Shown piece by piece: positions 768 through 17,051 of a stretch of 17,051 nt of DNA (position 1 is the stretch's first letter; the number at the start of each line of letters is the position of its first letter). The DNA lies in the NCBI GenBank assembly GCA_964609545.1, contig CAZSSX010000024.1:1-17051 (forward strand), read 5' to 3'. The notes beneath the pieces are model-generated. The model saw only the letters and a program-made list of their open reading frames with translations. It ran no database searches and was not told the DNA's origin. The position numbers and the translations under genes are program-made. Source of the DNA: an uncultured Phycisphaeraceae bacterium. GTDB taxonomy: Bacteria > Planctomycetota > Phycisphaerae > Phycisphaerales > Phycisphaeraceae.

Positions 768-961
768 CACTTTTTCTCCAATGATGTGATTAATTGACTG
801 ATCTCTGCCGATCAATCTCGATGCACAAATCATAGCCCGTGATTATGAGTGTTTGATTAACACCCGATTAAGCTTTGATCACAATTAAGCTAATAGCCTC
901 CGCGTTAACAGCTTGCAAAGCCAACGCTAACACGATGCTCATAATCCGACATTTTGCGCAT

Positions 962-1004
962 GAAAAAAGCCGCATTGCTTTGAACGCAACACGGCTTTTA
1001 TTTG
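962..1004 (-). terminator. Rho-independent terminator downstream of rplI (hairpin flanked by A-run and T-run, so it could act in either direction)
   Basis: AAAAAA-AGCCGCATTGC-TTTGAAC-GCAACACGGCT-TTTTATTT at 962-1004. About 9 of 11 stem positions pair. On the minus strand the hairpin is followed by TTTTTT, immediately 3' of the rplI stop at 1031. Confidence 0.5.
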
Positions 1005-1030
1005 TTATTCTTTAATAAATCAGGAGAAGC

Positions 1031-1579: not shown

Positions 1580-1640
1580 GATGTCCTCTTTCAAATAAGG
1601 AGTTAGACGCTCAAGTCATCATGCCTAAGCGCCAACATGT

Positions 1641-1667
1641 AAAAAAAATAGGCTAACATTTAGCCTA
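1641..1667 (-). terminator. Intrinsic terminator between ssb and rplI
   Basis: Plus strand AAAAAAAA-TAGGCTA-ACATT-TAGCCTA (7-bp perfect stem, 5-nt loop). On the minus strand the hairpin is followed by T8, directly 3' of the ssb stop at 1679. Confidence 0.5.
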
Positions 1668-1678
1668 CTGATGTTTGT

Positions 1679-2209
1679 TTAGAATGGGATATCTTCTTCT
1701 TCAATAGGCTGATGCGCCGGTGCGCCAGCTGTGGACCCCGATGCGTAGTCATCGTTCCCGCCAGAGGAATATCCGCCGGCCGCTGCGGAGCCTTGATTCT
1801 GCGCCGCAGGTGCTGCAGGAGCCGACGACCCCGAACCCGATGCCGATGGCGGAGGATTGCCGTTGCCTTGACCCGCTGGGCGTGCATCAATAAACTGAAA
1901 GCTCTCTAAGACAACCTTAAGTTTCGAGCGATTACCACCCTCTTTGTCTTGCCATTGATCTAATTTAAGGCGTCCCTCTACGAAAAGAGGCCGTCCTTTA
2001 GTGAGATATTGGCTCAAAAGCTCAGCTTGCCTTCCCCATGCTTCGATATCCACAAAAGTAGTTTCCTGCTGACGCTCGCCGCTTTGATTTTTCCAATCAC
2101 GGTTGATGGCCATACCAATATTAGCCACCGCGGTATTGTTAGGCGTGTAACGTAATTCGGGGTCTCGCGTCAGGTTTCCCATGAGCATCACTTTGTTTAA
2201 ATTAGGCAT
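1679..2209 (-). CDS. ssb: Single-stranded DNA-binding protein SSB
   Basis: MPNLNKVMLMGNLTRDPELRYTPNNTAVANIGMAINRDW... OB-fold, then a Gly/Ser/Ala-rich flexible linker and the canonical acidic tip ...EEEDIPF. Start at internal ATG with AGAGGATAAAT upstream; the track's longer 190-aa version starts 14 codons earlier without an RBS. Confidence 0.85.
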   Translation of the reverse strand: MPNLNKVMLMGNLTRDPELRYTPNNTAVANIGMAINRDWKNQSGERQQETTFVDIEAWGRQAELLSQYLTKGRPLFVEGRLKLDQWQDKEGGNRSKLKVVLESFQFIDARPAGQGNGNPPPSASGSGSSAPAAPAAQNQGSAAAGGYSSGGNDDYASGSTAGAPAHQPIEEEDIPF

Positions 2210-2285
2210 ATTTATCCTCTGTTTCTTCGATATAAAATGAGGCCTACCCATAAAAATAGTAGGCTTTTAGAAATGGCTTATTCTA

Positions 2286-2693
2286 TTATTTAGTTGCCGG
2301 CGCAGCCGCTTCAGAAGAAGCCTCTTCAGTCACTGCGGGGGCCAATGATTCGTTGCCTTCTTTGATCGCAGCTTCTAGCTCAACTTCAGCCATATGCGTA
2401 GGGCGTGTCACCATAACGCGTAAAACAGATTCTGAAAGATTACAGTCTCGGTCTAAACCCGTTAGCTTCTCGCCATCCGCACGGAAATACGCAATCAAAT
2501 ACGTGCCTCGTTTTTGACCATCAATTTCATAAGCAAGACGGCGCTCTTCCCATTTATGTAACGTAATCACTTCAGCCTCGGCACGATCTAAAAGACCCTT
2601 CACGTGATCGATGCAATTAGTCATACCCACCGTGACCGCTTCTTGCGTCATAAGGAAAAGTGCTTCGTATAGATTCGTAGTAGTATCAGACAT
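2286..2693 (-). CDS. rpsF: 30S ribosomal protein S6
   Basis: MSDTTTNLYEALFLMTQEAV...LHKWEERRLAYEIDGQKRGTYLIAYFRADGEKL...ESVLRVMVTR matches the S6 fold pattern (YE..F...P, W..R.LAY.I). GGAG RBS 9 nt upstream of ATG. Gene order S6-SSB-L9 is the conserved cluster. Confidence 0.85.
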   Translation of the reverse strand: MSDTTTNLYEALFLMTQEAVTVGMTNCIDHVKGLLDRAEAEVITLHKWEERRLAYEIDGQKRGTYLIAYFRADGEKLTGLDRDCNLSESVLRVMVTRPTHMAEVELEAAIKEGNESLAPAVTEEASSEAAAPATK

Positions 2694-3006
2694 TTTAAAC
2701 TCCGTCTATTTTGATGCTTCGGTCAACCGACACGACGATGCTGGTCACAGGACCCAAAAAGTGGGCCGAAGTATCTTTATTGAACACAACATTCTAATTC
2801 AAATGCCCCAGAAAGGCAAAAGCATCACACAATTTATCTAAGGCACCGCACCATTGGCGTTAAATCACTATTTTAACTAGACTTGCAAACCAAGATCTTC
2901 TTCATCCAAGCCCATCTTCCCAAAAATGCCATTCCAAATTCTGATTTCCACAACGATGCCAACGTTTTTCGTAGATAATACCCAGAGACTTTAAAGGAGT
3001 ATCACG

Positions 3007-3312
3007 ATGACACACCCCAACCCATCCCCACCACCAACCACCTTAAAAATCATCTGTGTGTTTCTGGTCACAGCAGCACTCATCGCCATCTACAGCATCT
3101 ATCTAACCGGCGAAGCCCGCACCACCTCCGCCCAGATAGCCATGCAACAATTTAACGAGAATCAGCGGGACGTCTCCCGAGATTTACAGACCTACGACAC
3201 AATCAAGCAGCTTTACGAATTCTTAATCGGGCCCATCTGGTTGATCGGCGTCTGGCTCACTTTTAAAACCGAATTCAAATCACTATTTAAAAAAACAACC
3301 CATACCCCATAA
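3007..3312 (+). CDS. Small hypothetical membrane protein (Pro/Thr-rich N-terminus, two predicted TM helices)
   Basis: AAAGGAG RBS 7 nt upstream of ATG. Hydrophobic stretches IICVFLVTAALIAIYSIYL and LIGPIWLIGVWLTF. 40 bp upstream of the SPFH gene, same strand. Composition (P/T/H-rich) partly mirrors the C-rich strand bias, so coding status is moderate. Confidence 0.45.
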   Translation: MTHPNPSPPPTTLKIICVFLVTAALIAIYSIYLTGEARTTSAQIAMQQFNENQRDVSRDLQTYDTIKQLYEFLIGPIWLIGVWLTFKTEFKSLFKKTTHTP

Positions 3313-3351
3313 CCCCATAGCCATGCAAAAGCATGACAAAGGATTTTTAAA

Positions 3352-4410
3352 ATGAACAAAAAGATGACCGCTATTTTTACAACCATTGCCCTGATTACCT
3401 TTTTCGGGCTAGTCGCCATGACCGTGCTAGTCAAACCTTACGACACACCCGAATATCAAATGATCGGGAACTCCGAAACCGCATTCCTCATCGAGCTCGA
3501 AGGCAATGCTTCAGTCAAACTAGAAACCCCCAAAGATTACGAAAGCACAAAGGTCATGCAAAAACGCGTCCGCATCACCCACCTTTGGGTACAAGAAGGC
3601 AGGCTACCCAATGATGGAAAATATGTCGCCGCAGTCAAACTCATCCGAGTCGATCGCGCACCAGTGACACGAGAATGGACACCCGATGCAACCTCTGGCA
3701 CTTCCTCCAGAGACGATGCCATCTGGGTAGAATCAGCCGACTCCATCGGCTTTGCCATCGGTTTTAACTGCACCGCATTAATCGAAGAAACCTCAGCCGC
3801 CAAGTTCCTCTATCGCTACCCCTCGCAAACCAAAGCCAGCTCCAGACTAGCCAAAGTCATGGACTCCGAAATCCGCAACAAAGTCCAATCCCTAGCCGCC
3901 AACTTTGCCGCAAGATACAATCTAGACGAGCTAAGAAGCAAAAAAAATGAAATGCTCAAAGCCATCAAAGAGGCCGTCATCCCACATTTCCAATCCAAAG
4001 GCATCACCATCAGCATGATCGGCATGTACGGCGGATTCACCTACCAAAATAAAAATATCCAAAATGCCATCGACAAAGTCTTCGAAGCGCAACAAGAAAA
4101 AAATAAAGAAGCAGCACTCCTAGAAGCAATGAAAACCAAAGAAGCCAGACTCAAATCAGAAGGCGTAGCTGAAGCCAACCGAGACCGCGAAATCGCATCA
4201 GGCAAAGCAGACGCTATCAAAATCATTAACCAAGCACTCAAAGAAGCCAACTCCAACCCCATCTTTATCAAAATGAAATTGATCGAAGTCGAAAATAACC
4301 GCATCAAAAAATGGAGCGGACAAGTACCCAGAATGATCTTTAATTCAGGCGGCGGAAAAAACAACACCGGCTTCGTACCCCTCCTACAAATACCCACAGA
4401 TATGCCATAA
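3352..4410 (+). CDS. SPFH/Band-7 (stomatin/HflK/C/flotillin-like) membrane protein
   Basis: N-terminal TM (AIFTTIALITFFGLVAMTVLV). Central region with the SPFH-like pattern (…LAKVMDSEIRNKVQSLAANFAARYNLDELRSKKNEMLKAIKEAVIPHFQSKGITISMIGMYGGFTYQN…). Then an Ala/Glu/Lys-rich coiled coil (EAQQEKNKEAALLEAMKTKEARLKSEGVAEANRDREIASGKADAIKIINQAL) typical of the HflK/C-flotillin C-terminus. AAAGGA RBS 9 nt upstream. Confidence 0.55.
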   Translation: MNKKMTAIFTTIALITFFGLVAMTVLVKPYDTPEYQMIGNSETAFLIELEGNASVKLETPKDYESTKVMQKRVRITHLWVQEGRLPNDGKYVAAVKLIRVDRAPVTREWTPDATSGTSSRDDAIWVESADSIGFAIGFNCTALIEETSAAKFLYRYPSQTKASSRLAKVMDSEIRNKVQSLAANFAARYNLDELRSKKNEMLKAIKEAVIPHFQSKGITISMIGMYGGFTYQNKNIQNAIDKVFEAQQEKNKEAALLEAMKTKEARLKSEGVAEANRDREIASGKADAIKIINQALKEANSNPIFIKMKLIEVENNRIKKWSGQVPRMIFNSGGGKNNTGFVPLLQIPTDMP

Positions 4411-4436
4411 CCTAAAACAGCAATACATCCCACAAT

Positions 4437-4474
4437 AAAAAGCGAGGGCGCCTCACAGCGTCCCCGCTTTTTTA
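4437..4474 (+). terminator. Rho-independent terminator after the SPFH gene
   Basis: AAAA-AGCGAGGGCGC-CTCACA-GCGTCCCCGCT-TTTTTT. 11-bp GC-rich stem with 1 mismatch and 1 G·U pair, 6-nt loop, T6 tail, starting 27 bp after the stop codon. Confidence 0.6.
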
Positions 4475-4587
4475 CGATATACTGTGCCCAGCAAACCAAA
4501 CACTTAACCCATACCACCCCTGCTTGACCGCCGACCAACCCCTTGCCGTCACCCTATTTTGAATTTATTTTTTTTAAAAGAGCATCC

Positions 4588-5250
4588 ATGAAACCTACCA
4601 TTTTAATCCCACTTCTTTTTGGCGTAATGTTTTCATACCTCGGCGTAAAACATCTCAACTTTTATTTACACACACAAGCCACCCCACAAACCCTCAGCCT
4701 AGCCGACTTAGAATCCCAAGGCTACAGCAACAATGCCCATCTCATACTCACCGATTTTTCCATGAAATTAACCAACCCAGTCTACAAAGAAAAATCTGAA
4801 AGCAACCACATCGCAGATTTTTCCATCCCCCTAATCTCCACCCAAAGCCAGTATTACCGAACACTCAAGCAGATCCTTCAAACCCACCCCATCCGCGAAA
4901 ACACCTTAAATATCACAAGCCCAAAAAAATTCCGCGTACTCCTCTTAAACCCCGCCATCAACAGCAAAGACCAAGCAACAAAATTTATCCAAAATCACCA
5001 ACACCAACAGCTACAAGGCATCATCGTCAATGATATCTATGACCTACCCAATGCCCAGCGCAAACGCTACCAAGAAGCATACCCCCAGCAGGATATGACA
5101 GACATCCTCCTGTTTTCAGTCGGATACCAACCCCCATCGGGCATCTTCGCCGCCGGCTCCTTAGCCCTGAGCGCAATCAGTTGGACCCTCTGTTTGTATT
5201 TTATTTTCCGTAAGAAACAACAGCCTTATCTCAATACCCCTCTAAGCTAA
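4588..5250 (+). CDS. Hypothetical bitopic/two-TM membrane protein (Gln/His-rich central region)
   Basis: ORF-track start at 4543 is a TTG; the first ATG (4588, MKPTILIPLLFGVMFSYLGV) begins directly with a TM helix. A second hydrophobic segment lies near the C-terminus (IFAAGSLALSAISWTLCLYFIF). Weak RBS (AAAAGAG). No recognisable family; not NfeD-like. Confidence 0.45.
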   Translation: MKPTILIPLLFGVMFSYLGVKHLNFYLHTQATPQTLSLADLESQGYSNNAHLILTDFSMKLTNPVYKEKSESNHIADFSIPLISTQSQYYRTLKQILQTHPIRENTLNITSPKKFRVLLLNPAINSKDQATKFIQNHQHQQLQGIIVNDIYDLPNAQRKRYQEAYPQQDMTDILLFSVGYQPPSGIFAAGSLALSAISWTLCLYFIFRKKQQPYLNTPLS

Positions 5251-5292
5251 TTCCCACCCAATACCCCGCCGCCTTCATACAAATCACAAGCA

Positions 5293-5328
5293 TAAAAAAA
5301 CCAAGACCGATCCGATCTTGGTTTTTTT
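5293..5328. terminator. Bidirectional intrinsic terminator between convergent genes
   Basis: AAAAAAA-CCAAGACCG-ATC-CGATCTTGG-TTTTTTT. 9-bp stem with 1 mismatch, flanked by an A-run and a T-run, lying between the stop of the + gene (5250) and the stop of the - gene (5350). Confidence 0.6.
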
Positions 5329-5349
5329 ATGATCACTTATTCTGTTTTT

Positions 5350-6315
5350 TTAAGCCCCAGCTTTAGCCGCTTTTTTCGCCGCCTTGGCAGCTGCTTTTTC
5401 GACCAATTCTTGTATTTCCGCCCGCGATTTAGGCGCTGCTTTCTTCGCCGCCTTTTCCGCTTGCTTAACCGCCTTGGCTTGCTTCTCCGCTAAAACTTCA
5501 TCCCACCCATCAATCGACGCCTTGGCCTGAGGCAAATAATCTTCCGCGGGCATCAGCGAGGGGAACCACGCCCGATCCCACTCCAAACAAATATAACCAT
5601 CATAGCCAATCCCCTTGAGCCTCTTCAACGTATTTTCGACACCCGCCGTGCCTTGACCAATCGGCAAAAACCCGCTGCCCCTACCAATCACCGAATCCTT
5701 AATTTTTGCAATCTTAATCCTGCTATTAAGCGTCGTAATCCCCACCCAGCCGCCCTTATCATGCGCATCATAAATCGCACTATTCAATGCATTCCAGCAG
5801 ATCCCAACCATCGGGTGATCAATAATATCGAGCATCCACCACCACTCTTTGGCCTGCGTAAAACTCCCCGCATTTTCAAAAAGAAGCTGCACACCATACT
5901 CCCCCGCCACTTCCGCCAACGGCTTGGCATGCTCCGCTATTCGCGCGATAACCGTACGACGATTCTCCCCAGGCATAACCTCATTACCATAAATACGAAC
6001 CGCCGAACAACCAATCTCCGACGCCGTCTTAATAGATTTAATAATTCCCGACGTCGCAGCACCCAGCCGCGTCAAATCACGATGATGCAATGCATAAGAT
6101 GTACTCAAACAAATCGGCGCAATCTCCCGAGACTCAAAAAGATCCCGCACCTTAGAAGCATCGCTCAATGCCGGATCACAAGCCAGTGGGCTTTCCTCAC
6201 CGCCTAACGTACGCAGCTCAACCCCAGCAAAACCAAATGCCTTGGCTTTGTCAACGACCTGCTCCAGGGTCCATTCGGGGCAAGCGACGGTGCTAAATGC
6301 AAGCTTGGTAGACAT
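5350..6315 (-). CDS. Sugar-phosphate isomerase/epimerase (xylose-isomerase-like TIM barrel) with C-terminal Lys/Ala-rich histone-H1-like tail
   Basis: From internal ATG: MSTKLAFSTVACPEWTLEQVVDKAKAFGFAGVELR...YGVQLLFEN...GICWNALNS...GYDGYICLEWD, the characteristic AP-endonuclease-2/xylose-isomerase-like TIM pattern. Final ~45 aa AEKQAKAVKQAEKAAKKAAPKSRAEIQELVEKAAAKAAKKAAKAGA are AKKA-repeat-like. The longer 366-aa version starting at 6450 adds 45 aa with no signal peptide or RBS. Confidence 0.75.
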   Translation of the reverse strand: MSTKLAFSTVACPEWTLEQVVDKAKAFGFAGVELRTLGGEESPLACDPALSDASKVRDLFESREIAPICLSTSYALHHRDLTRLGAATSGIIKSIKTASEIGCSAVRIYGNEVMPGENRRTVIARIAEHAKPLAEVAGEYGVQLLFENAGSFTQAKEWWWMLDIIDHPMVGICWNALNSAIYDAHDKGGWVGITTLNSRIKIAKIKDSVIGRGSGFLPIGQGTAGVENTLKRLKGIGYDGYICLEWDRAWFPSLMPAEDYLPQAKASIDGWDEVLAEKQAKAVKQAEKAAKKAAPKSRAEIQELVEKAAAKAAKKAAKAGA

Positions 6316-6482
6316 AAGCGGTATATCCTTTACTAGGCGCAGCAAGCTGCGATGATCTCTATCAGAAACAAGAAGCCTAATTCTAACCTCCTCCCTTGAA
6401 ATTGCCAAAACTGACCCGCCAAACTCCCCATAAAATTCACCGCAACTCACTTTTCCCCCGCGCCAAGCCCACCTCCCCCACC

Positions 6483-6511
6483 TTGCGACCCTAGCCCCTT
6501 CATATTATAAA
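6483..6511 (+). promoter_or_regulatory. Candidate sigma70-type promoter for the HIT gene
   Basis: TTGCGA-N17-TATAAA, about 45 nt upstream of the ATG at 6557. Sequence inspection only. Confidence 0.25.
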
Positions 6512-6556
6512 AGCCCTAACTTTGTGTTACCTCATCTTTTCTAAAAAGGCTCAAAT

Positions 6557-6988
6557 ATGAATCACCCTACCGATCCAGATTGTATTTTTTGCAAAATCAT
6601 CGCCGGACAAATCCCCGCCTACCAACTTTACCAAGACCCCCACGTCCTAGCCTTTCTAGACGTCGGGCCCATCGCCCCCGGACACACCTTAATCATACCC
6701 AAAGCCCATTACCCCACCCTCGATACAATGCCCCCCAACCTCGCCGCACATTGCATCAAAATCGCACCGACCCTCATCAAAGCCATCCAAAAAGCCACCG
6801 GCGCAACAGCCCTCAACCTCCTACAAAACAACGGCGCCATCGCCGGACAAGCCGTCAACCACGTACACTTTCATCTCATCCCACGCACAAAAAATGACGC
6901 ATTTAAATACACCTGGCCAGCACAAAACCTAAAAGAAACCCAAGGATTAGCCCTACTCGAAAAAATTAAAAAACATCTCAACACTTAA
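6557..6988 (+). CDS. HIT-family (histidine triad) nucleotide hydrolase
   Basis: CIFCKII zinc-ribbon-like N-terminus and histidine triad HVHFHLIP (HxHxHxx). Length 143 aa, typical of HINT proteins. Confidence 0.85.
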   Translation: MNHPTDPDCIFCKIIAGQIPAYQLYQDPHVLAFLDVGPIAPGHTLIIPKAHYPTLDTMPPNLAAHCIKIAPTLIKAIQKATGATALNLLQNNGAIAGQAVNHVHFHLIPRTKNDAFKYTWPAQNLKETQGLALLEKIKKHLNT

Positions 6989-7012
6989 AAACAAACCCAA
7001 ATCGCTCAACCC

Positions 7013-7048
7013 AAAAAAAAAACACGCAATACATCGCGTGCCTTTTTA
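7013..7048. terminator. Weak bidirectional terminator between convergent HIT and sulfatase genes
   Basis: A10-CACGC-AATACATC-GCGTG-CCTTTTT. 5-bp stem, A-run upstream and T5 downstream. Confidence 0.35.
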
Positions 7049-7082
7049 AATTTGTAAATTCAAAATCGTTTATCCCATCGCC

Positions 7083-8828
7083 TTACTTAAAAGGCGTTTT
7101 AGCCGTAGGAATATCCACACGCTTACCCGTCGCCCGAACGATCGGCAACCCCGCATCAGCTGCATCAAGCCAACGGAATAATTCCCGGCGAAGCTTAATC
7201 GCCAGCTTCGGCTTCTTACTCGCAAGATTATGCTTCTCCCCAACATCCACAGAAACATGATAAAGCTCCGTCCGCGGATCATAACCCTTCTCATCACTCA
7301 CACCATCACCATAAAAATAAATCAATTTCCAATCACCCTTACGCATCGCGCTATAAGGCTCAATCCCCGCACCCACACCAACATCACGATACCATTGATG
7401 CGGATAATGCCAAAACAAAGGCTTCTTCCGTGTGAATGATTTTCGACGCAATAAAGAACCTAAATCTTGCCCATCTCTTTGAATTTTTAATAACGGATTT
7501 TTCACCCCAGCGATAGATAAAATCGTAGGAAAAATATCATCACCATGCACAGGCTCCGCACAAGTCGTCCCCGGAACAATCGACAAACGAGAATTAATCG
7601 GCTTCTGCTTTTTAAGTTGACCCGCCCACGCAACGATCATCGGAATCCGCGTACCCCCATCATAGCCGCTCCCCTTCCCGCTTAACGCAGGTGCATTATG
7701 ATAATCACGCTTGTATCGCACACGAATCCCACTATTAAGTAATGCCTTGCCCGCGTTACTCCGAGCATGATTAGAAAGCCCGCCGTTGTCTGATACAAAA
7801 AGAATAATCGTATTTTCAGCGATACTATCCGCAGTATTACCATCCCCGTTAGGATCCCTCAACGTACTTAAAATCGCACCCAAGGAAGCATCCATCCCCG
7901 TAAGCATCGAGCCATAATCACTCTCCACTTTAGGCCTGCCATCACGATAAAATTTGAGATATTTCTCAGGCCCAGCAGCGATTTGCGTATGCACCGCAAA
8001 CTGCGCCATATTCATAAAAAAAGGAACACCTTCCGCCGCAGCATCTCGAATCACACCCCGAGCTTTAATCGTAATCGCATCAGTCAAATACTCGCCCTCA
8101 GGACGATCCTCCAACCCAGGATACATCTTCGCATATTTACCAAGCCAAGGAGAATACCAACCGCCCCAAGGCCCGCCCCCATGACTCCCCGCAATATTAA
8201 TATCAAATCCCAAATTCGTAGGGTCAGCCCCTAAAGCTTGACCAAAGTGAGCCTTACCAATATGAATCGTCCGATACCCAGCACCTCGAAGCAACGTAGG
8301 TAACGTCACAAAACCGTCACCAGGCTGCAAACCCACAGATCGCCATTCAGGCGAAAACAAATACCTATTCTTACTCCGACCATGACCAATCCAATCACTC
8401 ACACCAGAACGAGCAGGATTCTGACCCGTCATAAAACTCATCCGCGTCGGTGAACAAACCGGATGCGATGCATAAGCATTGGTAAACTTCATCCCACGGC
8501 TAGCCAACGTTTCCATATGAGGCGTATGGTAAATATTATTCCATACCGTCCGCTTCTTACCAAAACTAACCGAAGTATCCTGCCAACCCATATCATCAAC
8601 AACAAATAAAATAATATTAGGCTTCACCCCTCGAGCAATCACACCCTTACCCCCAGATCGATTCGTCACTTCCATTGGCCTAGCACTGACACCCGAATCT
8701 CCCCCAGCCAATCCATCCCTTCCCTCTGATATATCTGACACTTCAACAGTCGCACAAGCCCCAATAACAAAACAAATAAAGCCTAAACAAAAGGTCTCAA
8801 ATACAGAAAATAATCTACCAATAATCAT
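7083..8828 (-). CDS. Secreted sulfatase (arylsulfatase/choline-sulfatase family; formylglycine-dependent)
   Basis: N-terminal signal peptide (MIIGRLFSVFETFCLGFICFVIGACA). NIILFVVDDMGWQD metal-binding start, sulfatase signature VCSPTRMSFMTGQNPARSGV (C-x-P-x-R) and a GKAHFG-like downstream motif; 581 aa. Confidence 0.85.
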   Translation of the reverse strand: MIIGRLFSVFETFCLGFICFVIGACATVEVSDISEGRDGLAGGDSGVSARPMEVTNRSGGKGVIARGVKPNIILFVVDDMGWQDTSVSFGKKRTVWNNIYHTPHMETLASRGMKFTNAYASHPVCSPTRMSFMTGQNPARSGVSDWIGHGRSKNRYLFSPEWRSVGLQPGDGFVTLPTLLRGAGYRTIHIGKAHFGQALGADPTNLGFDINIAGSHGGGPWGGWYSPWLGKYAKMYPGLEDRPEGEYLTDAITIKARGVIRDAAAEGVPFFMNMAQFAVHTQIAAGPEKYLKFYRDGRPKVESDYGSMLTGMDASLGAILSTLRDPNGDGNTADSIAENTIILFVSDNGGLSNHARSNAGKALLNSGIRVRYKRDYHNAPALSGKGSGYDGGTRIPMIVAWAGQLKKQKPINSRLSIVPGTTCAEPVHGDDIFPTILSIAGVKNPLLKIQRDGQDLGSLLRRKSFTRKKPLFWHYPHQWYRDVGVGAGIEPYSAMRKGDWKLIYFYGDGVSDEKGYDPRTELYHVSVDVGEKHNLASKKPKLAIKLRRELFRWLDAADAGLPIVRATGKRVDIPTAKTPFK

Positions 8829-8869
8829 GGGAATCGCCTTATCAATGAATAAAAAAACAACGAAACCCC

Positions 8870-8898
8870 ATTATATCCAAAACACAAAGCCAAGCCAA
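8870..8898 (-). promoter_or_regulatory. Candidate sigma70-type promoter for sulfatase gene
   Basis: On the minus strand: TTGGCT-N17-TATAAT (perfect -10), about 35 nt upstream of the ATG at 8828. Confidence 0.3.
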
Positions 8899-9092
8899 CA
8901 TCAACGATTTAAAATGCCTCATCAAAATAACTTATACTGCTGGACCTCTAATAAAAAATGCCTCGCATATAGAGAGAAAGATGCCCCCCCGAAAATGCGT
9001 CGCCATTGATCAACCAAATGTAAAACAAAATCCGCTTGCTTAACATCCTCCGATGAGATGATGAAGTACGCCTATATTTATTTAAATGCATT

Positions 9093-9191
9093 TGAGCCCT
9101 TCTATCAACCTCAAATTTCTTTTGAAAATGTACGATTCAAGATTTGCAATGAGGGTTGTTTTTGAAATTATGAGGTTGATAGAAAGGCTCA
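9093..9191. repeat. Long imperfect inverted repeat (about 27-bp arms, about 45-nt spacer) in the intergenic region
   Basis: Left arm TGAGCCCTTCTATCAACCTCAAATTTC (9093-9119). Right arm GAAATTATGAGGTTGATAGAAAGGCTCA (9164-9191). 26 of 27 positions pair, with a single-nt bulge. The spacer holds two TTTTGAAA(A/T)T copies. Located 200 bp 3' of the 660-aa gene's stop, on the transcribed strand. Confidence 0.6.
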
Positions 9192-9392
9192 TTTAAGACT
9201 AACCCGCAAGCGCCAGCACACATCGGCCGCTACTTCCAATGCAACAATCAAACAACCCCATGCAACGCCCGATGGACACACGCCACATAGAACAGCCCAT
9301 CATAAAATCACCAACCCCAACCCAGCGGCATCAACAATTAACCAATCCACCTTAAACAGCTACCCTCATCTCAAAGACCACTACGCTTCATA

Positions 9393-11375
9393 TCAATCAA
9401 AGCTAGGTGGCGCAATATAGCCTCCACCACTACCAGATAATGCCCGGCGTGGCCTACCAGATGACCGATACCCACCCCTTGAACGACCCTTTTTTTCTTC
9501 CGTCAAACGATTATAAAGAACATAGTATTCCGGATCACTCGTCGATGGACGACTCTTAACACGAATCACACCCCCCATCGCATCCGAGGTATACACAAGC
9601 CCCAGCCCTTGCTCCGTGAGTGCCGTATCAATCGCAACCGCACCGACATTAAAATCAACGATAATCTTTTTGTTCGGCGTGACAGTGCCTCGACTCGGAT
9701 TAGCAACATACATTTTCACAGCCTTAGGCTCACCGATCGTTTCACCAGGATAAACTCGGAAATTTTCACGATAATATTTCCCGTGATGCATACGAATAAC
9801 TTCCACCGCAGCTGAAGAATCTTTAGATGCTTGCTTCACAAAAAAGGTCCGAATCGGATAAACATACACAGCTGCAGACCACGCAGAAGGATCCGTTAAT
9901 AAATAAAGCTTATCCCCGATTTCTGCTTTCTGCTCGGGGTTCACTTTCTCACGATGATAAAGAGGATTTAACAACGCAATCCGAATCCGATACCGGTAAT
10001 AATGACCAGGATCCATACTCATATCATGAGCCAAAATCTCAATCGTTTGCTCTGCTTGTCTCCGCTTTTCCTCCTCTGTCAAGTCCTCCCCGATCGGGTC
10101 CTCTACCTGAACATCTCCCCCATTACTAGCATCAGCCTCGTGATCAATCGCTTCCCGATCAGATTCCAATCTACTGACTTTATCTTCCAATACCGTCATC
10201 TTTTCAATCAACCGCTCAAGCTTGGTTTTTCGTTTCCGAGCATTTCTAGAAGGCCTATTACTGTCAGGCAAAATACTCCCGCCAAGACCTTTATCTGTTT
10301 TCCGCTTAGACAGCGAACGAGGTTTACGCCCAGACTTCAACTCTCTATCTCTACGCGCCTGCTCTCGTTTTTCCTCACGATCAATGCTCTTCTGAAGCTT
10401 GGCTTTTTCTTTTAAAACACTCTCAAGTAATTTAGCATTTTTGGTTAACCGCTTGCGTTGCTCTAAAGTATAAACACGGCTATCAACTTCCAACGGATTC
10501 ACAAACGGCCTAGAACGATTGCTCAACGGCGGAAGTTCCACATACGCATTCTCTTTTTCATTCTGGATCGCCATATTAACTACAAAATCAGACTGCTGAG
10601 GTGTCAAATCCCCCAAATCACTAAACATCATCTCCTGATTAGGCAAATGCTCAACCACTTCCGTCGATCCCCATTGACCCGTTGCCGGATCTTTTTTCTG
10701 ACGCTCAAGCACCCAACCCGTCACCACTTCTCGCTTATATAAAACTGGAAATTTCACCCGAGAGTAAGCTTGACGCATCTTGTATTTTTGATATTTCGCC
10801 GTAAAATGCAATACAGAAAGATGCCTCATCCTCTCATCCGGATCCTGCTTACGCATCAGCGCAGTATACTCCTCAGATAATTCCGTAGCCTTATTTAAAT
10901 TAGCGTTACTACGCGGATCCAAAGTCAACACCCGCTTAGCCAGCCATGCCGAAAATTCTCGCTGAGATTTAAAATCATAATAATCAGCAGAACACTTAAT
11001 CTGCGTAGCCACAGGAAAAAGGGGCATCTTAATATAGCTAATCGAGTCATTAATCTGGTGAGATTCAACACGAGGCCCCACCGCAGGAGCCAACAAAGAT
11101 GCCATCTTTTGCCCTAAACGCGTATCAAGCTTAGCCTCAAATTCCTTAGCATCCTCAAAATAACGATCCTTCCTCACACCACTAGGCAAATTATCAGCCA
11201 AAGCTTCAATCTTAATCTGCCCAGCATCCTTAATCAGCTTCTCCGTACGCTCCTGAATACTTTTTTTACTCGGAGCAAACATCAAATAAGCCGCAAAAAG
11301 AGATACGATCAGCGCCACCAATAATGCGATCTTATCACTATATTTTTCTGCAAAAGTCGCGTCTTTGTACATCAT
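9393..11375 (-). CDS. Large hypothetical bitopic membrane protein (660 aa) with Arg/Lys/Glu-rich coiled-coil region and Gly/Arg-rich C-terminal tail; third gene of the PilMN-fusion cluster
   Basis: Short cytoplasmic N-terminus followed by one TM (IALLVALIVSLFAAYLMF). About 120-aa highly charged segment (…LKEKAKLQKSIDREEKREQARRDRELKSGRKPRSLSKRKTDKG…KRKTKLERLIEKMTVLEDKVSRLESDREAIDHE…). C-terminus …KKGRSRGGYRSSGRPRRALSGSGGGYIAPPSFD. AAGAGG RBS; 98-bp gap to the upstream gene. No recognisable secretin/PilP signature by eye. Confidence 0.7.
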   Translation of the reverse strand: MMYKDATFAEKYSDKIALLVALIVSLFAAYLMFAPSKKSIQERTEKLIKDAGQIKIEALADNLPSGVRKDRYFEDAKEFEAKLDTRLGQKMASLLAPAVGPRVESHQINDSISYIKMPLFPVATQIKCSADYYDFKSQREFSAWLAKRVLTLDPRSNANLNKATELSEEYTALMRKQDPDERMRHLSVLHFTAKYQKYKMRQAYSRVKFPVLYKREVVTGWVLERQKKDPATGQWGSTEVVEHLPNQEMMFSDLGDLTPQQSDFVVNMAIQNEKENAYVELPPLSNRSRPFVNPLEVDSRVYTLEQRKRLTKNAKLLESVLKEKAKLQKSIDREEKREQARRDRELKSGRKPRSLSKRKTDKGLGGSILPDSNRPSRNARKRKTKLERLIEKMTVLEDKVSRLESDREAIDHEADASNGGDVQVEDPIGEDLTEEEKRRQAEQTIEILAHDMSMDPGHYYRYRIRIALLNPLYHREKVNPEQKAEIGDKLYLLTDPSAWSAAVYVYPIRTFFVKQASKDSSAAVEVIRMHHGKYYRENFRVYPGETIGEPKAVKMYVANPSRGTVTPNKKIIVDFNVGAVAIDTALTEQGLGLVYTSDAMGGVIRVKSRPSTSDPEYYVLYNRLTEEKKGRSRGGYRSSGRPRRALSGSGGGYIAPPSFD

Positions 11376-11473
11376 CGTTTAAGCCTCTTGTGTTAATTTT
11401 ATCAATTAAGCAATGAACCCAATTCTTGATCCATCATTTTACCAGAATCACCCCGACACTTGCCCCGCTACTA

Positions 11474-13090
11474 CTAATTATTCTTTTCTACGCCATTCAG
11501 TTCTGCGTTATATTTATCCAAAACCACCTTAGGCATATATTGATCAACCCATTCATTAAGCCACAAACTTTCAATCACCACCGTCAACTCCACCAAAGGC
11601 TTACTACCATAAACATAACCCTCAACCAATTGCTCATACAAATCCACATGCCCCATATGCATCGCGATAACCGTATTAAAATTCACCTTCGCTAATTTAT
11701 CAATAAACACAGGCACTTGCCTAGCCTCTATCACAATCGTACAAATCGTATGCTTAACCCGATAAGTCTTATTGGATTTGCGACCCGTATGAGCCAAGTG
11801 ATAATCAAGAGCCCCCTTGACATCACTGCCCACAACAGTATCGCTACGTTTATTGCGACCCCGATTAATTAACCCCGAATCATTAAAACTCGAAGAAACA
11901 TCGAAATTCCGAGGCTGCTGAAAAGTGCCACCCAACCCACCTTGCCCCGCCAAAGAACCCCCGCCAAAACCCGTAAGCGAGGGATTGCGAGGCACCCAAA
12001 GTTGAACATCACTCATTTGATCTTTCACGTTTTTTACAAGCGTAATTTCACTACCCAAACCTGTGTTATTACCAAGCCCCACATAACCCCTACCAATCCG
12101 AACCTGAACCAATTTCTTAATCGGATTCTCCCGCACAGTACTCGATGCGCTGGCCGTGACAGCTTCATTAGTCAGCCGAATCGCACGAATAATATCCTCG
12201 ATAATCCAAAGCTGTTCCTGCCACTGCCAAATCCGATCCATCCCTATTTTCTCACCACTCTTACTCTGCAGATCAAATTCAAAAGGGTAAGGCGTATTCT
12301 GAGTATTACGATCATCCACTTCAGTATTTAAAGACTGAGCCGCAATAGCACTTCGCGATCGAGTCAAGGCCTCGGGTAATTTCGTATTCGCATAAATATA
12401 AAGCGCCTCAGCACGCTTCACCAACGCAGTATGCCAAACTTTTCGCTGAGCCTCCCGACATTCTTTCTCGTCTACTTCATTCAAAGGCGAATTATCAATC
12501 TCACCATCCGTCAATTCACGCTGCTTATTACTAATAAACTCCGTCCGAGCATCGGACAGTTCCTTATAAATACGATCAACCGAAGGCGGTAATCCCCCAC
12601 GCAAATCCACCTCTAAAAATCGCTTCATCGACGCAATATAAGAAAAACGAGCCGAACGCGCCGTCGTCTCTTTATCACTACGAAACCGCTCCTTCTGATC
12701 CGCACTCATCCTGCTTTCCAAATCAATCTTATCAAATAAACCAGAAAGCATCGGCTTATGATCACCACGATTAAAACGAATCACATTCTTAGAAATTCGC
12801 CCAGAACCAGCGATACGCTCCGCTTTCCACGCTTTCCCAGCCAAAACTAAATGCTGATTCACCACAACCGAAACCGCCTCAGGAGACTCACCAGCAGCCA
12901 AAGGAGGCAGCATCACCTCACCCCGAAGACGCCTCACAATATGACGCGGCTTATCCAGTTGTTTCGCCAAGGCCTCGCGCTCCGTCCGAGCATCTAACGC
13001 CATATATAATGATGCCCCAAATAACAACACAATCACCGAGGAACTAATCGCCAAAGGGTTACCTTTAATAATCACAGAAAACTTATTCAT
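11474..13090 (-). CDS. Large hypothetical bitopic membrane protein (538 aa) with PilO/GspM-like topology, translationally coupled to the PilM-PilN fusion gene
   Basis: Its start ATG overlaps the upstream stop (ATGAATAA, 8-nt overlap at 13083-13090). N-terminal TM PLAISSSVIVLLFGASLYMAL followed by a charged helix (DARTEREALAKQLDK…), then a roughly 480-aa presumably periplasmic region including a Gly-rich stretch (SLTGFGGGSLAGQGGLGGT). Far larger than the ~200 aa of canonical PilO. Confidence 0.7.
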   Translation of the reverse strand: MNKFSVIIKGNPLAISSSVIVLLFGASLYMALDARTEREALAKQLDKPRHIVRRLRGEVMLPPLAAGESPEAVSVVVNQHLVLAGKAWKAERIAGSGRISKNVIRFNRGDHKPMLSGLFDKIDLESRMSADQKERFRSDKETTARSARFSYIASMKRFLEVDLRGGLPPSVDRIYKELSDARTEFISNKQRELTDGEIDNSPLNEVDEKECREAQRKVWHTALVKRAEALYIYANTKLPEALTRSRSAIAAQSLNTEVDDRNTQNTPYPFEFDLQSKSGEKIGMDRIWQWQEQLWIIEDIIRAIRLTNEAVTASASSTVRENPIKKLVQVRIGRGYVGLGNNTGLGSEITLVKNVKDQMSDVQLWVPRNPSLTGFGGGSLAGQGGLGGTFQQPRNFDVSSSFNDSGLINRGRNKRSDTVVGSDVKGALDYHLAHTGRKSNKTYRVKHTICTIVIEARQVPVFIDKLAKVNFNTVIAMHMGHVDLYEQLVEGYVYGSKPLVELTVVIESLWLNEWVDQYMPKVVLDKYNAELNGVEKNN

Positions 13091-15158
13091 AAACGACTCT
13101 CCTTCTCGACCGGCTCATTGCTGCCCCACCGGGCTCTTCATTTTTATCTGTCTCTGGCGCCCGAGGATCTTTCAAAACAATATAGCATTCAAAAACAATA
13201 AGCTTGTAATTACCATCTGTCTTCTCATGAAAAATCAAAGGATCTGAAACAATCAACTCCTCCAGCCTCACACCCGCCCCTTGCCCGCTTGAAGTACGCC
13301 GCCTATAAGATCGCCTCACACCCCCAGGAAGCAATCCGCCCCCAGGCAAAATACCCACGCCAGGCTGAACAAAACCCCCATTCACAGGGTTAATCTTTTT
13401 CCCATCAAGATCTAAAAATACCTTAGGAATCACTTTCAACAAAGGCAAATCAGAACCAACAATCGTATAAGGACGCCGATTGTTCTTAATCACAGATTTC
13501 AAGGGATCCATAAAATGCGTATAAAACCACTGAGATGTACTGTCCCCGGTTTCTAAACCATAAGGCGTCTTAAATTTCAAAGAAACGAAAAAACGCGGCT
13601 TACCCCCCGATTTATCAAAATCACCCGCAGACTTCGCATCTTTCCCACCATCAGCCCCACTCGGTTCAAAAGTACCCGGCAAATACTCAATCGTGGAATT
13701 AAGTAAAGTGATACTTTTTCGCTGAGCAGGCGGAATCTTTAAAATCTCATCCAAATTCCCCTCCTCAAACGCTACCTGAGTGCCTAAGTGCTTAAGCGCC
13801 GTATCCAAATCCGCTAAGAATAAAGGCAGCACCTCACGCCCCCCCAACATACTACGATAAATATCGATTTTGCCCGTCTCACCCGTCCCAATCCCATAAG
13901 CCTCATACAGCCCATGATATTTAGAAGCCTGATTGGTGTCTTTATCGACAACTTTAATCGCTTTGGCAACGTAGGCCTGATCTTGCGACAAGCCTTTCTT
14001 CTGAAAGAAAAAACCAAAAACACCCACCACCAACATCAAGCTCGCTGCAGCCAAAAAGATAGGCCCCTTGGCTTTCCAAATCCGTGACTTAATAACCGCT
14101 TTAGGCAAAATATTAGCATTGATGTATCCCAAGCCCAACCCTTGAAGCGCTAACCCGTAAGCCGTCGCCATATTGATCGCCACACCCGCGAATTCAGACT
14201 CTTGACGCCCTTCTAAGCTCGCCCGCTCATATTCCATAGGCTTAATAATTTCCATCTCAAGCTGTTTTTGCAAAAATTTACGCAAACCAGGCAACTTAAA
14301 AGTAGAACCCACGCAAATAATACGTTGCAAATCCGCATCACGATTCTGACTCTGATAAAAACCTATTGTACGCTGCAAATTTTGAACCAAATCAGAAAAC
14401 ACAGGACGCATCGCTTGAAAAATCTGCCGAGCGTATTTACTAGAACCCGCTTCTCGCTTATGCACCTCAGCTTTGGGAAAACTCAAATTAAATTGATCCA
14501 CCAACGCATCCGTAAAATGATTGCCCCCTAACGAAAGTGTCCGCAACCAAACCCCACCCTGATCCGCGATAATCACATCCGTTGAACTCGTCCCAATATC
14601 GACAAACACAGTACCCGGGGAATCCGCATCCAATTTTTGATCATACGTAAATGCGTTATAAACACTCAAAGGAGAAAGCGTAACACCCTCAACACGGATC
14701 CCAACATCCTGAAGATTTCGCAAAAAACCTTCCACACGAGCCCGAGTTATCGCAAAAATACCCACCTCAATATCAGGCATATCATCTTGCGAAAATACTT
14801 GATAATCCCATTCAACCTCTTCTAAAGGAAACGGAATCTGCTGCTTAGCTTCATACTGAACCATCCCCCGAATCTGCTTCTTATTCACAGGCGGTAATTT
14901 GGCAAACTTGGCGATAGCCATATTCCCAGCCACCGAAACAAAGACAGGCGCATCCGTCAGATCATGCTTGGCAAGCAGCTTTTCTAGCCCAAGCTGAATC
15001 TCTTCATCAACATCCAAGTCAGGCGTGGTCAGCACACGCTTAAACTCGACCACCTCGTGGGCGATCACCGTTACACCATCATCATCGCGTGCCAACTTCA
15101 TCGCTTTAATGGCATTAGCGCCGATATCTAGGCCCCATGCTTCGCTCATTTTCGCCAT
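13083..15158 (-). CDS. PilM-type actin-like ATPase domain fused to PilN-like TM anchor and extended periplasmic domain (GspL-like architecture, 691 aa)
   Basis: N-terminal ~345 aa carry PilM family motifs: WGLDIGANAIKAMKL, VFVSVAGNMA, KKQIRGMVQYEAKQQIPFPLEEVEWDYQV, VFVDIGTSSTDVII, LGGNHFTDALVDQFNLSFPKAEVHKRE, ICVGSTFKLPGLRKFLQKQL. This is followed by INANILPK, which resembles the conserved INLLP PilM-binding N-terminus of PilN. Then one TM (GPIFLAAASLMLVVGVFGFFF) and an approximately 306-aa C-terminal region with Gly/Pro-rich and Arg-rich stretches. GGAG RBS 8 nt upstream. Confidence 0.8.
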   Translation of the reverse strand: MAKMSEAWGLDIGANAIKAMKLARDDDGVTVIAHEVVEFKRVLTTPDLDVDEEIQLGLEKLLAKHDLTDAPVFVSVAGNMAIAKFAKLPPVNKKQIRGMVQYEAKQQIPFPLEEVEWDYQVFSQDDMPDIEVGIFAITRARVEGFLRNLQDVGIRVEGVTLSPLSVYNAFTYDQKLDADSPGTVFVDIGTSSTDVIIADQGGVWLRTLSLGGNHFTDALVDQFNLSFPKAEVHKREAGSSKYARQIFQAMRPVFSDLVQNLQRTIGFYQSQNRDADLQRIICVGSTFKLPGLRKFLQKQLEMEIIKPMEYERASLEGRQESEFAGVAINMATAYGLALQGLGLGYINANILPKAVIKSRIWKAKGPIFLAAASLMLVVGVFGFFFQKKGLSQDQAYVAKAIKVVDKDTNQASKYHGLYEAYGIGTGETGKIDIYRSMLGGREVLPLFLADLDTALKHLGTQVAFEEGNLDEILKIPPAQRKSITLLNSTIEYLPGTFEPSGADGGKDAKSAGDFDKSGGKPRFFVSLKFKTPYGLETGDSTSQWFYTHFMDPLKSVIKNNRRPYTIVGSDLPLLKVIPKVFLDLDGKKINPVNGGFVQPGVGILPGGGLLPGGVRRSYRRRTSSGQGAGVRLEELIVSDPLIFHEKTDGNYKLIVFECYIVLKDPRAPETDKNEEPGGAAMSRSRRRVVYE

Positions 15159-15189
15159 TGATTACTCCTACAAATATCGTCTTATTACA

Positions 15190-15218
15190 AATATAAATGC
15201 ACTATCTTAAAGATTCAA
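15190..15218 (-). promoter_or_regulatory. Candidate sigma70-type promoter for the PilMN-fusion operon
   Basis: On the minus strand: TTGAAT-N17-TATATT, about 30 nt upstream of the ATG at 15158. Sequence inspection only. Confidence 0.3.
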
Positions 15219-15303
15219 TCGATCCTGCTGATCTCATCATCCATTTTTCTTTTGAAGTCATAGCATAACATAACACGCCCCAACATGCACCACCCACAAA
15301 CAT

Positions 15304-15329
15304 CATCCCCAAACACCATCCCCAAACAC
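15304..15329. repeat. Perfect 13-bp tandem direct repeat (CATCCCCAAACAC x2, preceded by partial CAT) in a C/A-rich leader region
   Basis: catCATCCCCAAACAC-CATCCCCAAACAC. Lies about 90-115 bp upstream (in the transcription direction) of the candidate -35 of the PilMN-fusion operon. Confidence 0.6.
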
Positions 15330-15539
15330 ATCTCCTCCCAAATCACACGACCTACCATAAAAAATAGCTTGTCTACGCTCTAAAAGGGTCATCACATTCA
15401 AAAAAAACATCATAAAGTCCGTGCCAATCTAACGATAGACTACCTTTATTATCATAGCCCAGCCCAGCCGCCCTTAGCAACTTTTTCTCAATATTTCTAA
15501 CACATACATCGATATTTTATACCTTACCCTGAGTATGCT

Positions 15540-15893
15540 TTATAAATGCTTCGCAGCCGGGCGATATTTCAACCCCGCCTTAATCGTAAAAACAATCGCT
15601 CCACCCAAAACAAGATAAACCGTCCCCATCATAAAATAAATCGAATACCCGTACGCCATGCTCGCGTTACTCCCCGCGCCATCGTAAACGCTATCCTTGC
15701 TCATCGTAAATTCAACATTACCTTGATGAACATAAATACTCTCCCCACCCGCATCACCATCAGCCAGCGACCCTGCACAGTTCGGACACGCCGACGCAGG
15801 CTGAGCATAACACATCCCAATTAAAATCACTGCACCAATAAATAATCCCACCACATGCCTCCCAGCCATCCACTTATAATAATCTGCCATCAT
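15540..15893 (-). CDS. Small hypothetical membrane protein (N-terminal signal/TM, CPNC motif, C-terminal TM)
   Basis: Start set at the internal ATG preceded by AAGGAA. This removes the 44-bp overlap with the upstream PDZ gene that the 157-aa track ORF would have. Sequence MADYYKWMAGRHVVGLFIGAVILIGMCYAQPASA|CPNCAGSLADGDAGG…, followed by a C-terminal hydrophobic segment YSIYFMMGTVYLVLGGAIVFTI. Confidence 0.45.
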   Translation of the reverse strand: MMADYYKWMAGRHVVGLFIGAVILIGMCYAQPASACPNCAGSLADGDAGGESIYVHQGNVEFTMSKDSVYDGAGSNASMAYGYSIYFMMGTVYLVLGGAIVFTIKAGLKYRPAAKHL

Positions 15894-15969
15894 CCATTCC
15901 TTTATACATCCTCCCCCTACCACTGATCGGTCATCTCCGATCCAAAAACACCCGAAACACGCTTCTTTT

Positions 15970-16818
15970 TTAACCACCCGCATGAAGCTGATAAGCTTCC
16001 TTGGCAACATCAAAACTCAGCGCATCTGCTAAACGTCGTTTCAGCCTGCGTACCACTGATTTGTGTAACACATCACCGTTACCGCCATAGATTTTATCCC
16101 ACCCTAATGCGCTGCCATAAGCAAACGTCACTGAGATCACACGCTTGCCTCGATACACTTTCATCACAATTTTATCACCCGGTTTTCGGCCTCGCACCTT
16201 CGACGCCAGCAACTCGATCCGCGAGGCATAATCTCCTTTGATTTGAGCGCCATCAAAGACCAATATACGATCTCCCGGACGCAAAAACGCGTACGCGGGC
16301 AATCCCAGCGTGGTGCTTTTTAACTGAATCCCTTGATTTTCATATTTAGAGCCTTTCGTGAGAATATCATTTTTCCCAGCAAAAGTAATGCCTAGCATGC
16401 CATAATCGCGCTTAACTAGCGTATCGCTGACCAATCTGATTTCATCTCTAACCAAATAATGCCAAAGCACTCTTTTAATTCTGCTGCGTACTTCAAAATC
16501 ATCGCTCACGCCATAGGCTTGGACCATTTGGCTTGATTTAATCGCTTCGGATTGCATCAAAGCGTACATGGCCTCCTCGCGGACATAAAAATCTTCATCG
16601 CCAAGCTCTTTAATCACCCGAGCGATCCGCTTTTTCGCCCGCTGCGCCTCGGTCAACACTTTGGCTTGCGCCTTCACATCAGCACGGATCCCCGCTTGAT
16701 TAGCCTCAGGCTTGGCCCAGGCAGCACTTTGCCCAGCAGACATAGCCAAGCAGACGTAACTTATGATTACGACGCTAGTTGCGCCGATTTTTTTTGATTT
16801 TTTCATCGTTTTTTGCAT
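15970..16818 (-). CDS. Secreted PDZ-domain protein with HEAT-like N-terminal helix repeat
   Basis: GGAG RBS. Signal peptide MQKTMKKSKKIGATSVVIISYVCLAMSAGQSAAWA. DFYVREEAMYALMQS resembles a HEAT/PBS-lyase-type repeat. PDZ-like segment GMLGITFAGKND…GIQLKSTTLGLPAYAFLRPGDRILVFDGAQIKGDYASRIELLASKVRGRKPGDKIVMKVYRGKRVISVTF. Confidence 0.65.
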   Translation of the reverse strand: MQKTMKKSKKIGATSVVIISYVCLAMSAGQSAAWAKPEANQAGIRADVKAQAKVLTEAQRAKKRIARVIKELGDEDFYVREEAMYALMQSEAIKSSQMVQAYGVSDDFEVRSRIKRVLWHYLVRDEIRLVSDTLVKRDYGMLGITFAGKNDILTKGSKYENQGIQLKSTTLGLPAYAFLRPGDRILVFDGAQIKGDYASRIELLASKVRGRKPGDKIVMKVYRGKRVISVTFAYGSALGWDKIYGGNGDVLHKSVVRRLKRRLADALSFDVAKEAYQLHAGG

Positions 16819-17051
16819 ATTGATAGCTCCATTTTTTCGATTTTAGTTGATTTTATGCTGCGATTCTACCCGCAATAGGGATAAAATCCAAGCTTTAATC
16901 CCCAAATTCAAGATTGCAGGGGCGCGTGACTCGCTGAAGCGATGGTTGTTTTTTTCAAGATTCCATTATATTGGAAATTTCTGTTTCTTCCCGAAAAGGG
17001 CGTTTTGAAAGGCCTTGAAAGAGGGGTGAACGCGATCGAAGGGCTGTGTTA

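Follow-up and report, generated by a model that had tools for sequence, protein, structure and literature searches.

The 17,051-nucleotide stretch of DNA considered here, hereafter the window (positions 1 to 17,051 of contig CAZSSX010000024.1, assembly GCA_964609545.1, from an uncultured Phycisphaeraceae bacterium), encodes a 691-residue protein, g1, that is a natural fusion of a PilM domain, a PilN-type N-terminus with its transmembrane (TM) helix, and a periplasmic part that matches no PilN model. The fused protein heads a three-gene operon, with g2 and g3 downstream of it, and in the class Phycisphaerae the fused form is the rule. We consider it probable that g1 is a covalent PilM-PilN-type unit with its own N-x-L-P peptide bound, present in a fixed 1:1 ratio at the membrane, and that its periplasmic stalk and α/β domain pair with the products of g2 and g3.

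The g1 gene is a single open reading frame (ORF) on the minus strand, as are all the features of g1 described below, and runs from an ATG at 15158 to a stop codon at 13083-13085. Its extent, 13083..15158, had been given correctly by the first-pass annotation, made from the letters and a list of ORFs with translations, in which the strand had gone unstated. The first 340 residues (14139..15158) are a cytoplasmic, actin-like domain that is PilM both by hidden Markov model (HMM) and by fold, as the first-pass annotation had proposed, and not FtsA or MreB. The Pfam model PilM_2 (PF11104) matches residues 9-339 over profile positions 1-338 of 340 (E 2e-33; 116.2 bits, cut-off 27), TIGR01175 (pilM) gives 143.9 bits and so passes its cut-off of 133, and the sequences matched in the PDB were those of 3jc8, 2ych and 5eou/5eox (E 1e-19 to 1e-23). 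In the AlphaFold2 (AF2) model of g1, built with an alignment of the family and having a mean predicted local distance difference test score (pLDDT) of 76.6, the domain is mostly above 90, and the ten best Foldseek matches of the model in the PDB are all PilM structures (E 3e-26 to 3e-22), followed by FtsA at E ~1e-16. The residues of the domain that do not vary in the family (G9, G13, D187, T193, D194, G211, G212, N213, G284, S285 and T286) are, we presume, of the kind that forms the nucleotide-binding motifs of actin-like ATPases.

Directly after this domain come an 8-residue linker, LGLGYINA, and a PilN-type motif, NILP(K), together residues 341-353 (14100..14138). The string INANILPK, at residues 346-353 (nt 14100-14123), had been equated in the first-pass annotation with the peptide by which PilN binds PilM, and the equation has stood up well: the HMMER alignment of g1 to 5EOU, an engineered chimera of PilM and residues 1-12 of PilN, passes straight through the PilN part ('lg.lgyinanilp' against 'fdsSGMARINLLP'), and the pattern N-[ILV]-[LMIV]-[PT] is present in 60/60 family proteins, each from a different species. 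In 59 of these 60 the motif asparagine is found 15 residues on from where the conserved GLALQG helix end starts; in 55 the core of the TM helix begins 14 residues past the motif proline. Elsewhere in the same proteins the pattern occurs 7 times in 42,821 residues, which corresponds to a chance expectation of ~0.003 per 20-residue window, and the motif at its fixed offset is not due to chance. In the alignment of the 60 homologues N349 never varies, and A348 and P352 reach at least 90% conservation; R359, W361 and K364, in the basic juxtamembrane stretch that follows (AVIKSRIWKAKG, residues 354-365, 14064..14099), are invariant too. Residues 345-366 hold five K/R and no D/E, a charge pattern in line with the positive-inside rule, by which the side before the TM helix lies in the cytoplasm. 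The TM helix itself, which the first-pass annotation had also seen, occupies residues 366-386 (14001..14063); it is the only strongly hydrophobic segment of g1 (maximum Kyte-Doolittle value 2.54), and AF2 models an unbroken helix over residues 353-389 (pLDDT ~82-84). An I-N-L-L-P-type motif, a basic stretch and one TM helix, the marks of a PilN-type N-terminus, are thus all present in order, and the alignments support the correspondence of the NILP segment to the PilM-binding N-terminus of PilN. A search with the 86-residue segment around the motif gave no match.

The AF2 model bears indirectly on whether the peptide could be bound by the chain that carries it. Linker and motif are modelled at pLDDT 80-87, unlike a free linker. 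Of all PDB entries, chain 5eou_B ranks first in Foldseek (E 3e-26; TM-score 0.81, normalised, as are all the TM-scores given here, to the target), with 352/352 target residues aligned. The Thermus thermophilus PilM-PilN complex, 2ych, reaches 0.85, and the PilN-free PilM structures 5eox, 5eoy and 5eq6 reach 0.67-0.71. The model is nearer to PilN-bound than to PilN-free PilM, which fits a peptide docked in cis.

The fusion had been presented in the first-pass annotation as something of a rarity; it is instead the form that the gene normally takes in Phycisphaerae, where it is routinely annotated 'PilM'. The identical 691-residue protein is encoded on two assemblies (ENA ERZ27262693 and Logan SRR8439058). 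A word-indexed search returned more than 4,500 relatives of g1, of which the best 120 are all 610-801 residues long; many carry the annotation 'type IV pilus assembly protein PilM' and come from metagenome-assembled genomes of Phycisphaerae or Planctomycetota. Full-length, uninterrupted relatives of 610-870 residues number in the thousands among database proteins and come from dozens of species. Relatives are widespread at the level of species too: in a scan of one genome per species, at least 405 genomes encode a g1 relative, the best 80 of them all Phycisphaerae (Phycisphaerales, Phycisphaeraceae, Algisphaera and Tepidisphaeraceae). Conservation is continuous across the junction between the PilM and periplasmic parts. 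An exhaustive phmmer search with residues 341-691 against 1.84 billion representatives produced only 30 matches, all to the same family and nearly all beginning at about position 341 of a protein of 700-850 residues; the short matches that were read are fragments, one of them from a frameshift-ridden assembly.

The periplasmic half, of ~305 residues, begins with a helical stalk, residues 387-480 (13719..14000), delimited by AF2 models and conservation, in which the model has helices at 394-420 and 428-456 plus short helices; residues 421-480 are the best conserved periplasmic block, with D450 and R480 invariant. There follows an α/β domain, residues 481-669 (13152..13718), with modelled elements β484-493, β522-531, α541-559, β564-567, β573-577 and β651-662 and disordered loops at 499-513 and 581-630. 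The second of these loops (13269..13418; pLDDT <50) is an insert rich in Gly, Pro and Arg (26% G, 8% P, 10% R) that includes GGFVQPGVGILPGGGLLPGGVRRSYRRRTSSG, and an equivalent insert is found family-wide, with a length of 28-88 residues and a mean composition of 21% G, 11% P and 9% R. The chain ends in a disordered, variable tail, residues 670-691 (13083..13151 with the stop codon; from AF2 and family comparison), which is Arg-rich in g1, whereas in relatives it is either acidic or rich in Pro. The Gly/Pro- and Arg-rich strings that the first-pass annotation had picked out are present as quoted: GGFVQPGVGILPGGGLLPGGV at 594-614, VRRSYRRRTSSG at 614-625 and SRSRRRVVYE at 682-691. Pairs of family members are on average 72% identical over the PilM domain and 61% over the motif and pre-TM stretch, and the figure falls to 21-46% over the periplasmic blocks, a contrast that fits a conserved cytoplasmic partner. 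The first-pass annotation's statement that a tail of this length has no obvious precedent in canonical PilN went somewhat too far: a TM helix followed by a helical stalk, β-β-α-β-β elements and a final strand is a layout partly ordinary for the PilN/PilO/GspL type, although no sequence relation to those families is detectable. The similarity in fold is weak, and the modelled layout is compatible with that type without establishing membership of it.

The two genes behind g1 encode bitopic proteins, also on the minus strand: g2 (11474..13090), of 538 residues with a TM segment at ~12-32, and g3 (9393..11375), of 660 residues with a TM segment at ~16-35. The start of g2 overlaps the stop of g1 by 8 nt (ATGAATAA). 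When 84 related loci were compared by tblastn and blastp, a g2 homologue was found directly downstream of g1 in 75 and g3 as the third gene in 68; order and strand never varied where the genes were present, stop and start codons often overlapped, and the loci without g2 or g3 mostly end before the position at which it would be expected. Even a distant relative of g1, of 845 residues, has the same arrangement, and beyond these three genes no neighbour was conserved in the 84 loci. The g2 protein evolves fast and has a conserved C-terminal block (residues 428-523) in which relatives read ..TNFMTVL..VDE..L..GY.YG.., and g3 combines a charged coiled region with a conserved C-terminal domain that has the motif WAHD..PG.TYRYR..NPL (residues ~445-550) and with a tail rich in Gly and Arg. 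For g2 and g3 alike there is no match to a family in Pfam or NCBIfam, or to any PDB entry (Amuc_1100 included) in profile searches, and hhalign found no relation of either to the periplasmic part of g1; in word-indexed searches g2 gave 3 matches and the g3 profile recovered only the query. Stretches of low complexity rich in Gly, Arg or both occur in the periplasmic parts of all three proteins (residues 594-625 and 682-688 of g1, GFGGGSLAGQGGLGGTFQQPRN in g2 and KKGRSRGGYRSSGRPRRALSGSGGGYIAPPSFD at the C-terminus of g3).

Based on these observations, we propose that g1 combines in one chain what type IVa pili divide between PilM and PilN. Most likely the N-[ILV]-[LM]-P peptide turns back on its own chain and occupies the PilM groove there, in the manner of the engineered chimera, and with this peptide bound the PilM domain would be held at the membrane in a fixed 1:1 stoichiometry; that the fusion 'locks' the PilM:PilN interaction, as the first-pass annotation had suggested, is an inference. 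Within a type IV filament machine g1 probably supplies the cytoplasmic ring and the inner-membrane 'alignment' layer, where it would dock the ATPase and platform proteins on the cytoplasmic side, and its periplasmic part would pair with g2 and g3 as substitutes for PilO and PilP/GspC/PilW.

Several negative results weigh against this proposal. The Pfam models for PilN (PF05137), PilO, GspL_C and GspM matched 0/60 full-length family members (E <=1) and 0/48 C-terminal halves (E <=10), a profile search of PDB sequences with the periplasmic half gave only designed helical repeats and Tom20 and no PilN chain, and no relation of g2 or g3 to PilO, PilP or GspC could be detected. The genomic setting is no more encouraging: the g1 locus is not a pilMNOPQ-type cluster, the window holds no secretin, ATPase, platform or pilin gene, and in the related loci no gene for a secretin, for PilB/C/T, for a prepilin peptidase or for a pilin adjoins the cassette with any consistency. 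The neighbours that are shared at the level of clades encode Memo, CusF-like, epimerase, uracil-DNA glycosylase and CNNM proteins, and the flanks are otherwise unrelated housekeeping genes. Prepilin-type (N_methyl) genes do lie upstream of g1 in two relatives; such genes are very numerous in planctomycete genomes, and for that reason they carry no weight here.

A second reading, which we regard as possible and put forward only tentatively, is that g1-g2-g3 has taken the place of the entire PilN/O/P layer in this lineage, or has a function other than in a pilus. Only the PilM domain and the few PilN residues that bind PilM would then have been kept, in combination with three periplasmic proteins for which no homologue is detectable and in which there are disordered segments rich in Gly and Arg. 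The result would be a self-contained envelope module of Phycisphaerae, or perhaps of the wider Planctomycetes-Verrucomicrobia-Chlamydiae (PVC) superphylum, to which both Phycisphaerae and Akkermansia belong. Potential roles of such a module would be the capture or uptake of polymers, or anchoring to the unusual planctomycete envelope.

A further idea, which we consider rather unlikely, takes its cue from the mucin-utilisation locus MUL2 of Akkermansia (Amuc_1099-1102), in which Amuc_1101, a PilM-like membrane protein, acts together with a pilin-like protein and with Amuc_1100, which is an α/β protein. The g1 system would, by this analogy, be a PVC-type, pilus-like envelope apparatus with another output, such as surface attachment or the capture or uptake of macromolecules; the architecture of g1 would be unchanged, and the mechanism overlaps with the one that we favour. 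The strongest NCBIfam match of g1 is in fact to NF045709, the Amuc_1101 family (E 5.5e-59), in an alignment of residues 1-395 to model positions 1-404 of 608 that spans both the motif and the TM helix, Amuc_1101 has been named PilM or MUL2B of the mucin-utilisation locus (PMC13174399, PMC12619756), and the operon of g1 stands isolated from pilus genes. Positions 405-608 of the model are unmatched, however, and the score of 200.5 bits against a cut-off of 650 means that g1 is not a member of the family. Nor is there a secretin or pilin-like gene in the window, or consistently near the relatives, and g2 and g3, which far exceed Amuc_1100 and Amuc_1099 in size, have no match to the Amuc_1100 sequence in the PDB.

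That g1 is instead a membrane-anchored, FtsA-like protein of the cytoskeleton or of division, unrelated to filament secretion machines, seems to us very improbable. The Pfam FtsA model (PF14450) does match residues 184-308 (E 4e-10), FtsA structures are the second tier of fold matches, and a gene that is near-universal in its class, with a cytoplasmic domain on average 72% identical between relatives and housekeeping genes for neighbours, could suit such a role. Against this, it is the PilM models whose cut-offs are passed, TIGR01174 (ftsA) reaching 25.6 bits against a cut-off of 175.85; PilM folds are the better matches by ten orders of magnitude in E-value; and a PilN-type motif in a fixed position is a hallmark of PilM and PilN. 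The models for MreB and EutJ, also tried for the N-terminal domain, remained far below their cut-offs.

The last alternative, an assembly or frameshift artefact that joined pilM to a downstream gene, which the first-pass annotation had itself raised, has nothing in its favour beyond one apparently unfused relative (P0138), in an assembly whose adjoining genes are also fragmented, and one split copy (L084), and is ruled out by the identical ORF in two assemblies, the many uninterrupted relatives and the continuous conservation of the junction. In the split copy (L084 8001-10176) a 400-residue ORF is followed by a gap. At another locus (L087 4986-7044) the g1 gene is a 347-residue ORF that begins just before the motif, and since neighbouring genes of that locus are fragmented too, this is probably an assembly error and not a true unfused form.

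Some further features of the window may be recorded. Upstream of g1, a GGAG read directly from the sequence (15165..15168, minus strand) lies 6 nt from the ATG and resembles a Shine-Dalgarno sequence, and a weak sigma-70-like site lies at 15218-15190, in a promoter scan in which sites were no more numerous than in shuffled sequence; scans of the window for tRNA genes, Rfam families, promoters and terminators gave nothing informative. The source annotation has a 47-residue ORF at 15215-15358 (minus strand), between a 157-residue ORF and g1, that is present in both assemblies (L001 3951-4094 and L002 60-203). At 5350-6450 (minus strand) is a gene for a xylose-isomerase-like TIM-barrel protein (Pfam AP_endonuc_2, E 1e-28), which ends in a Lys/Ala-rich tail, …KQAKAVKQAEKAAKKAAPKSRAEIQELVEKAAAKAAKKAAKAGA, that resembles the tail of histone H1. 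Also on the minus strand, by eye, are genes for a ribosomal protein S6-like protein (2286-2693), a protein like single-stranded DNA-binding protein (SSB) with a C-terminal DIPF (1679-2251) and an L9-like protein (1031-1594); by these assignments the gap between the SSB and L9 genes is 85 nt, with no room for an S18 gene.

The base composition of the window is strongly asymmetric. Its plus strand (1-17051) has 5068 C against 2731 G, a GC skew of -0.30, and more A than T; the GC skew at third codon positions (GC3 skew) is -0.66 to -0.87 in plus-strand genes and +0.56 to +0.73 in most minus-strand genes, and these opposite signs indicate a bias tied to the physical strand, whichever way a gene runs. 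Between genes the GC skew is -0.2 to -0.5, and the ribosomal-protein genes (1031-2693) and a PDZ gene are less strongly biased. The GC content is 45%, and skew is near 0 in nine other Phycisphaerae loci (57-66% GC) and in two further relatives, L085 (47%) and L087 (73%). The locus of the nearest relative (L088 1-19467; 46% GC) has a GC skew of +0.45 and a GC3 skew of up to 0.88, with the sign reversed on the opposite strand, and since it comes from a different study the asymmetry looks like a property of the lineage.

The g1 protein is a natural counterpart of the PilM:PilN chimera that was engineered for crystallography, and shows that a covalently tethered 1:1 PilM-PilN unit is not only viable but the rule across one bacterial class. 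It also represents a second, independent route to a GspL-like topology, one on which an intact PilM domain and the PilN peptide were retained, and this bears on the kinship of the inner-membrane platforms of type II secretion systems (T2SS) and type IV pili. Databases list g1-type proteins under the plain name 'PilM' and their two constant partners as 'hypothetical'; once the cassette is recognised, all three become candidates for the PilN/O/P layer that is missing in Phycisphaerae. Conserved contacts of g1 should lie in its cytoplasmic half, which is highly conserved, and lineage-specific ones in its periplasmic half, which evolves fast. The literature within our coverage, which did not extend to subscription journals, contained no description of a planctomycete PilM fusion or of its partners.

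Placed among known systems, g1 is closest in its cytoplasmic part to PilM of type IVa pili, to which its PilM domain is homologous (E 1e-20 to 1e-24; TM-score 0.80-0.85 to 2YCH and the Pseudomonas aeruginosa chimera 5EOU), and it shares with PilN of those pili an N-L-L-P peptide that precedes a basic stretch and one TM helix. Even the position of the motif in the PilM:PilN(1-12) chimera is matched by the natural linker of g1. The differences from type IVa pili are that PilM and PilN are there separate proteins, whereas g1 is one natural polypeptide with a periplasmic part that has no PilN match in Pfam, and that their pil clusters continue with pilO, pilP and pilQ, in place of which g1 is followed by two orphan bitopic genes.

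The design of the fusion has precedents. GspL/PulL has been regarded as PilM fused to PilN (PMC10191384, PMC3724824). With a PilM domain, a peptide, one TM helix and a periplasmic part, g1 has a GspL-like topology, and its likeness to GspL, PulL, EpsL and XcpY, each a single chain of a PilM-like cytoplasmic domain, one TM helix and a periplasmic domain, is one of architecture only. The T2SSL model (PF05134) scores 16.6 bits on g1, below its cut-off of 25.5 and over residues 69-159 only, and gives a weak match in just 23/60 relatives; against the 116 bits of PilM_2, these scores support the earlier suggestion that g1 arrived at this topology from the PilM lineage. In contrast to GspL of the T2SS, g1 has a bona fide PilM domain with a PilN-type peptide and lies in no gsp gene context. 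A natural PilM-PilN fusion in one gene is also known as PilMN of Clostridioides difficile (PMC6916266), which g1 resembles as far as the literature description goes; it belongs to another phylum and another type of envelope, that of monoderm type IVa pili, in which PilN, according to the same review, binds PilM via a different, C-terminal motif.

The third precedent is the Amuc_1101 family itself, whose NCBIfam title is 'PilM-like pilus complex protein' and whose members, like g1, are long PilM-like proteins with a C-terminal extension. In the Akkermansia locus a secretin, Amuc_1098, and a pilin-like gene are adjacent (PMC5332112, PMC13174399), and the g1-g2-g3 cassette comes without either. 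By the cut-offs of the respective HMMs, g1 is a PilM and not a PilN, a GspL or an Amuc_1101 equivalog, and next to GspL, C. difficile PilMN and the Amuc_1101 family, the Phycisphaerae protein is a further variant of the same design.

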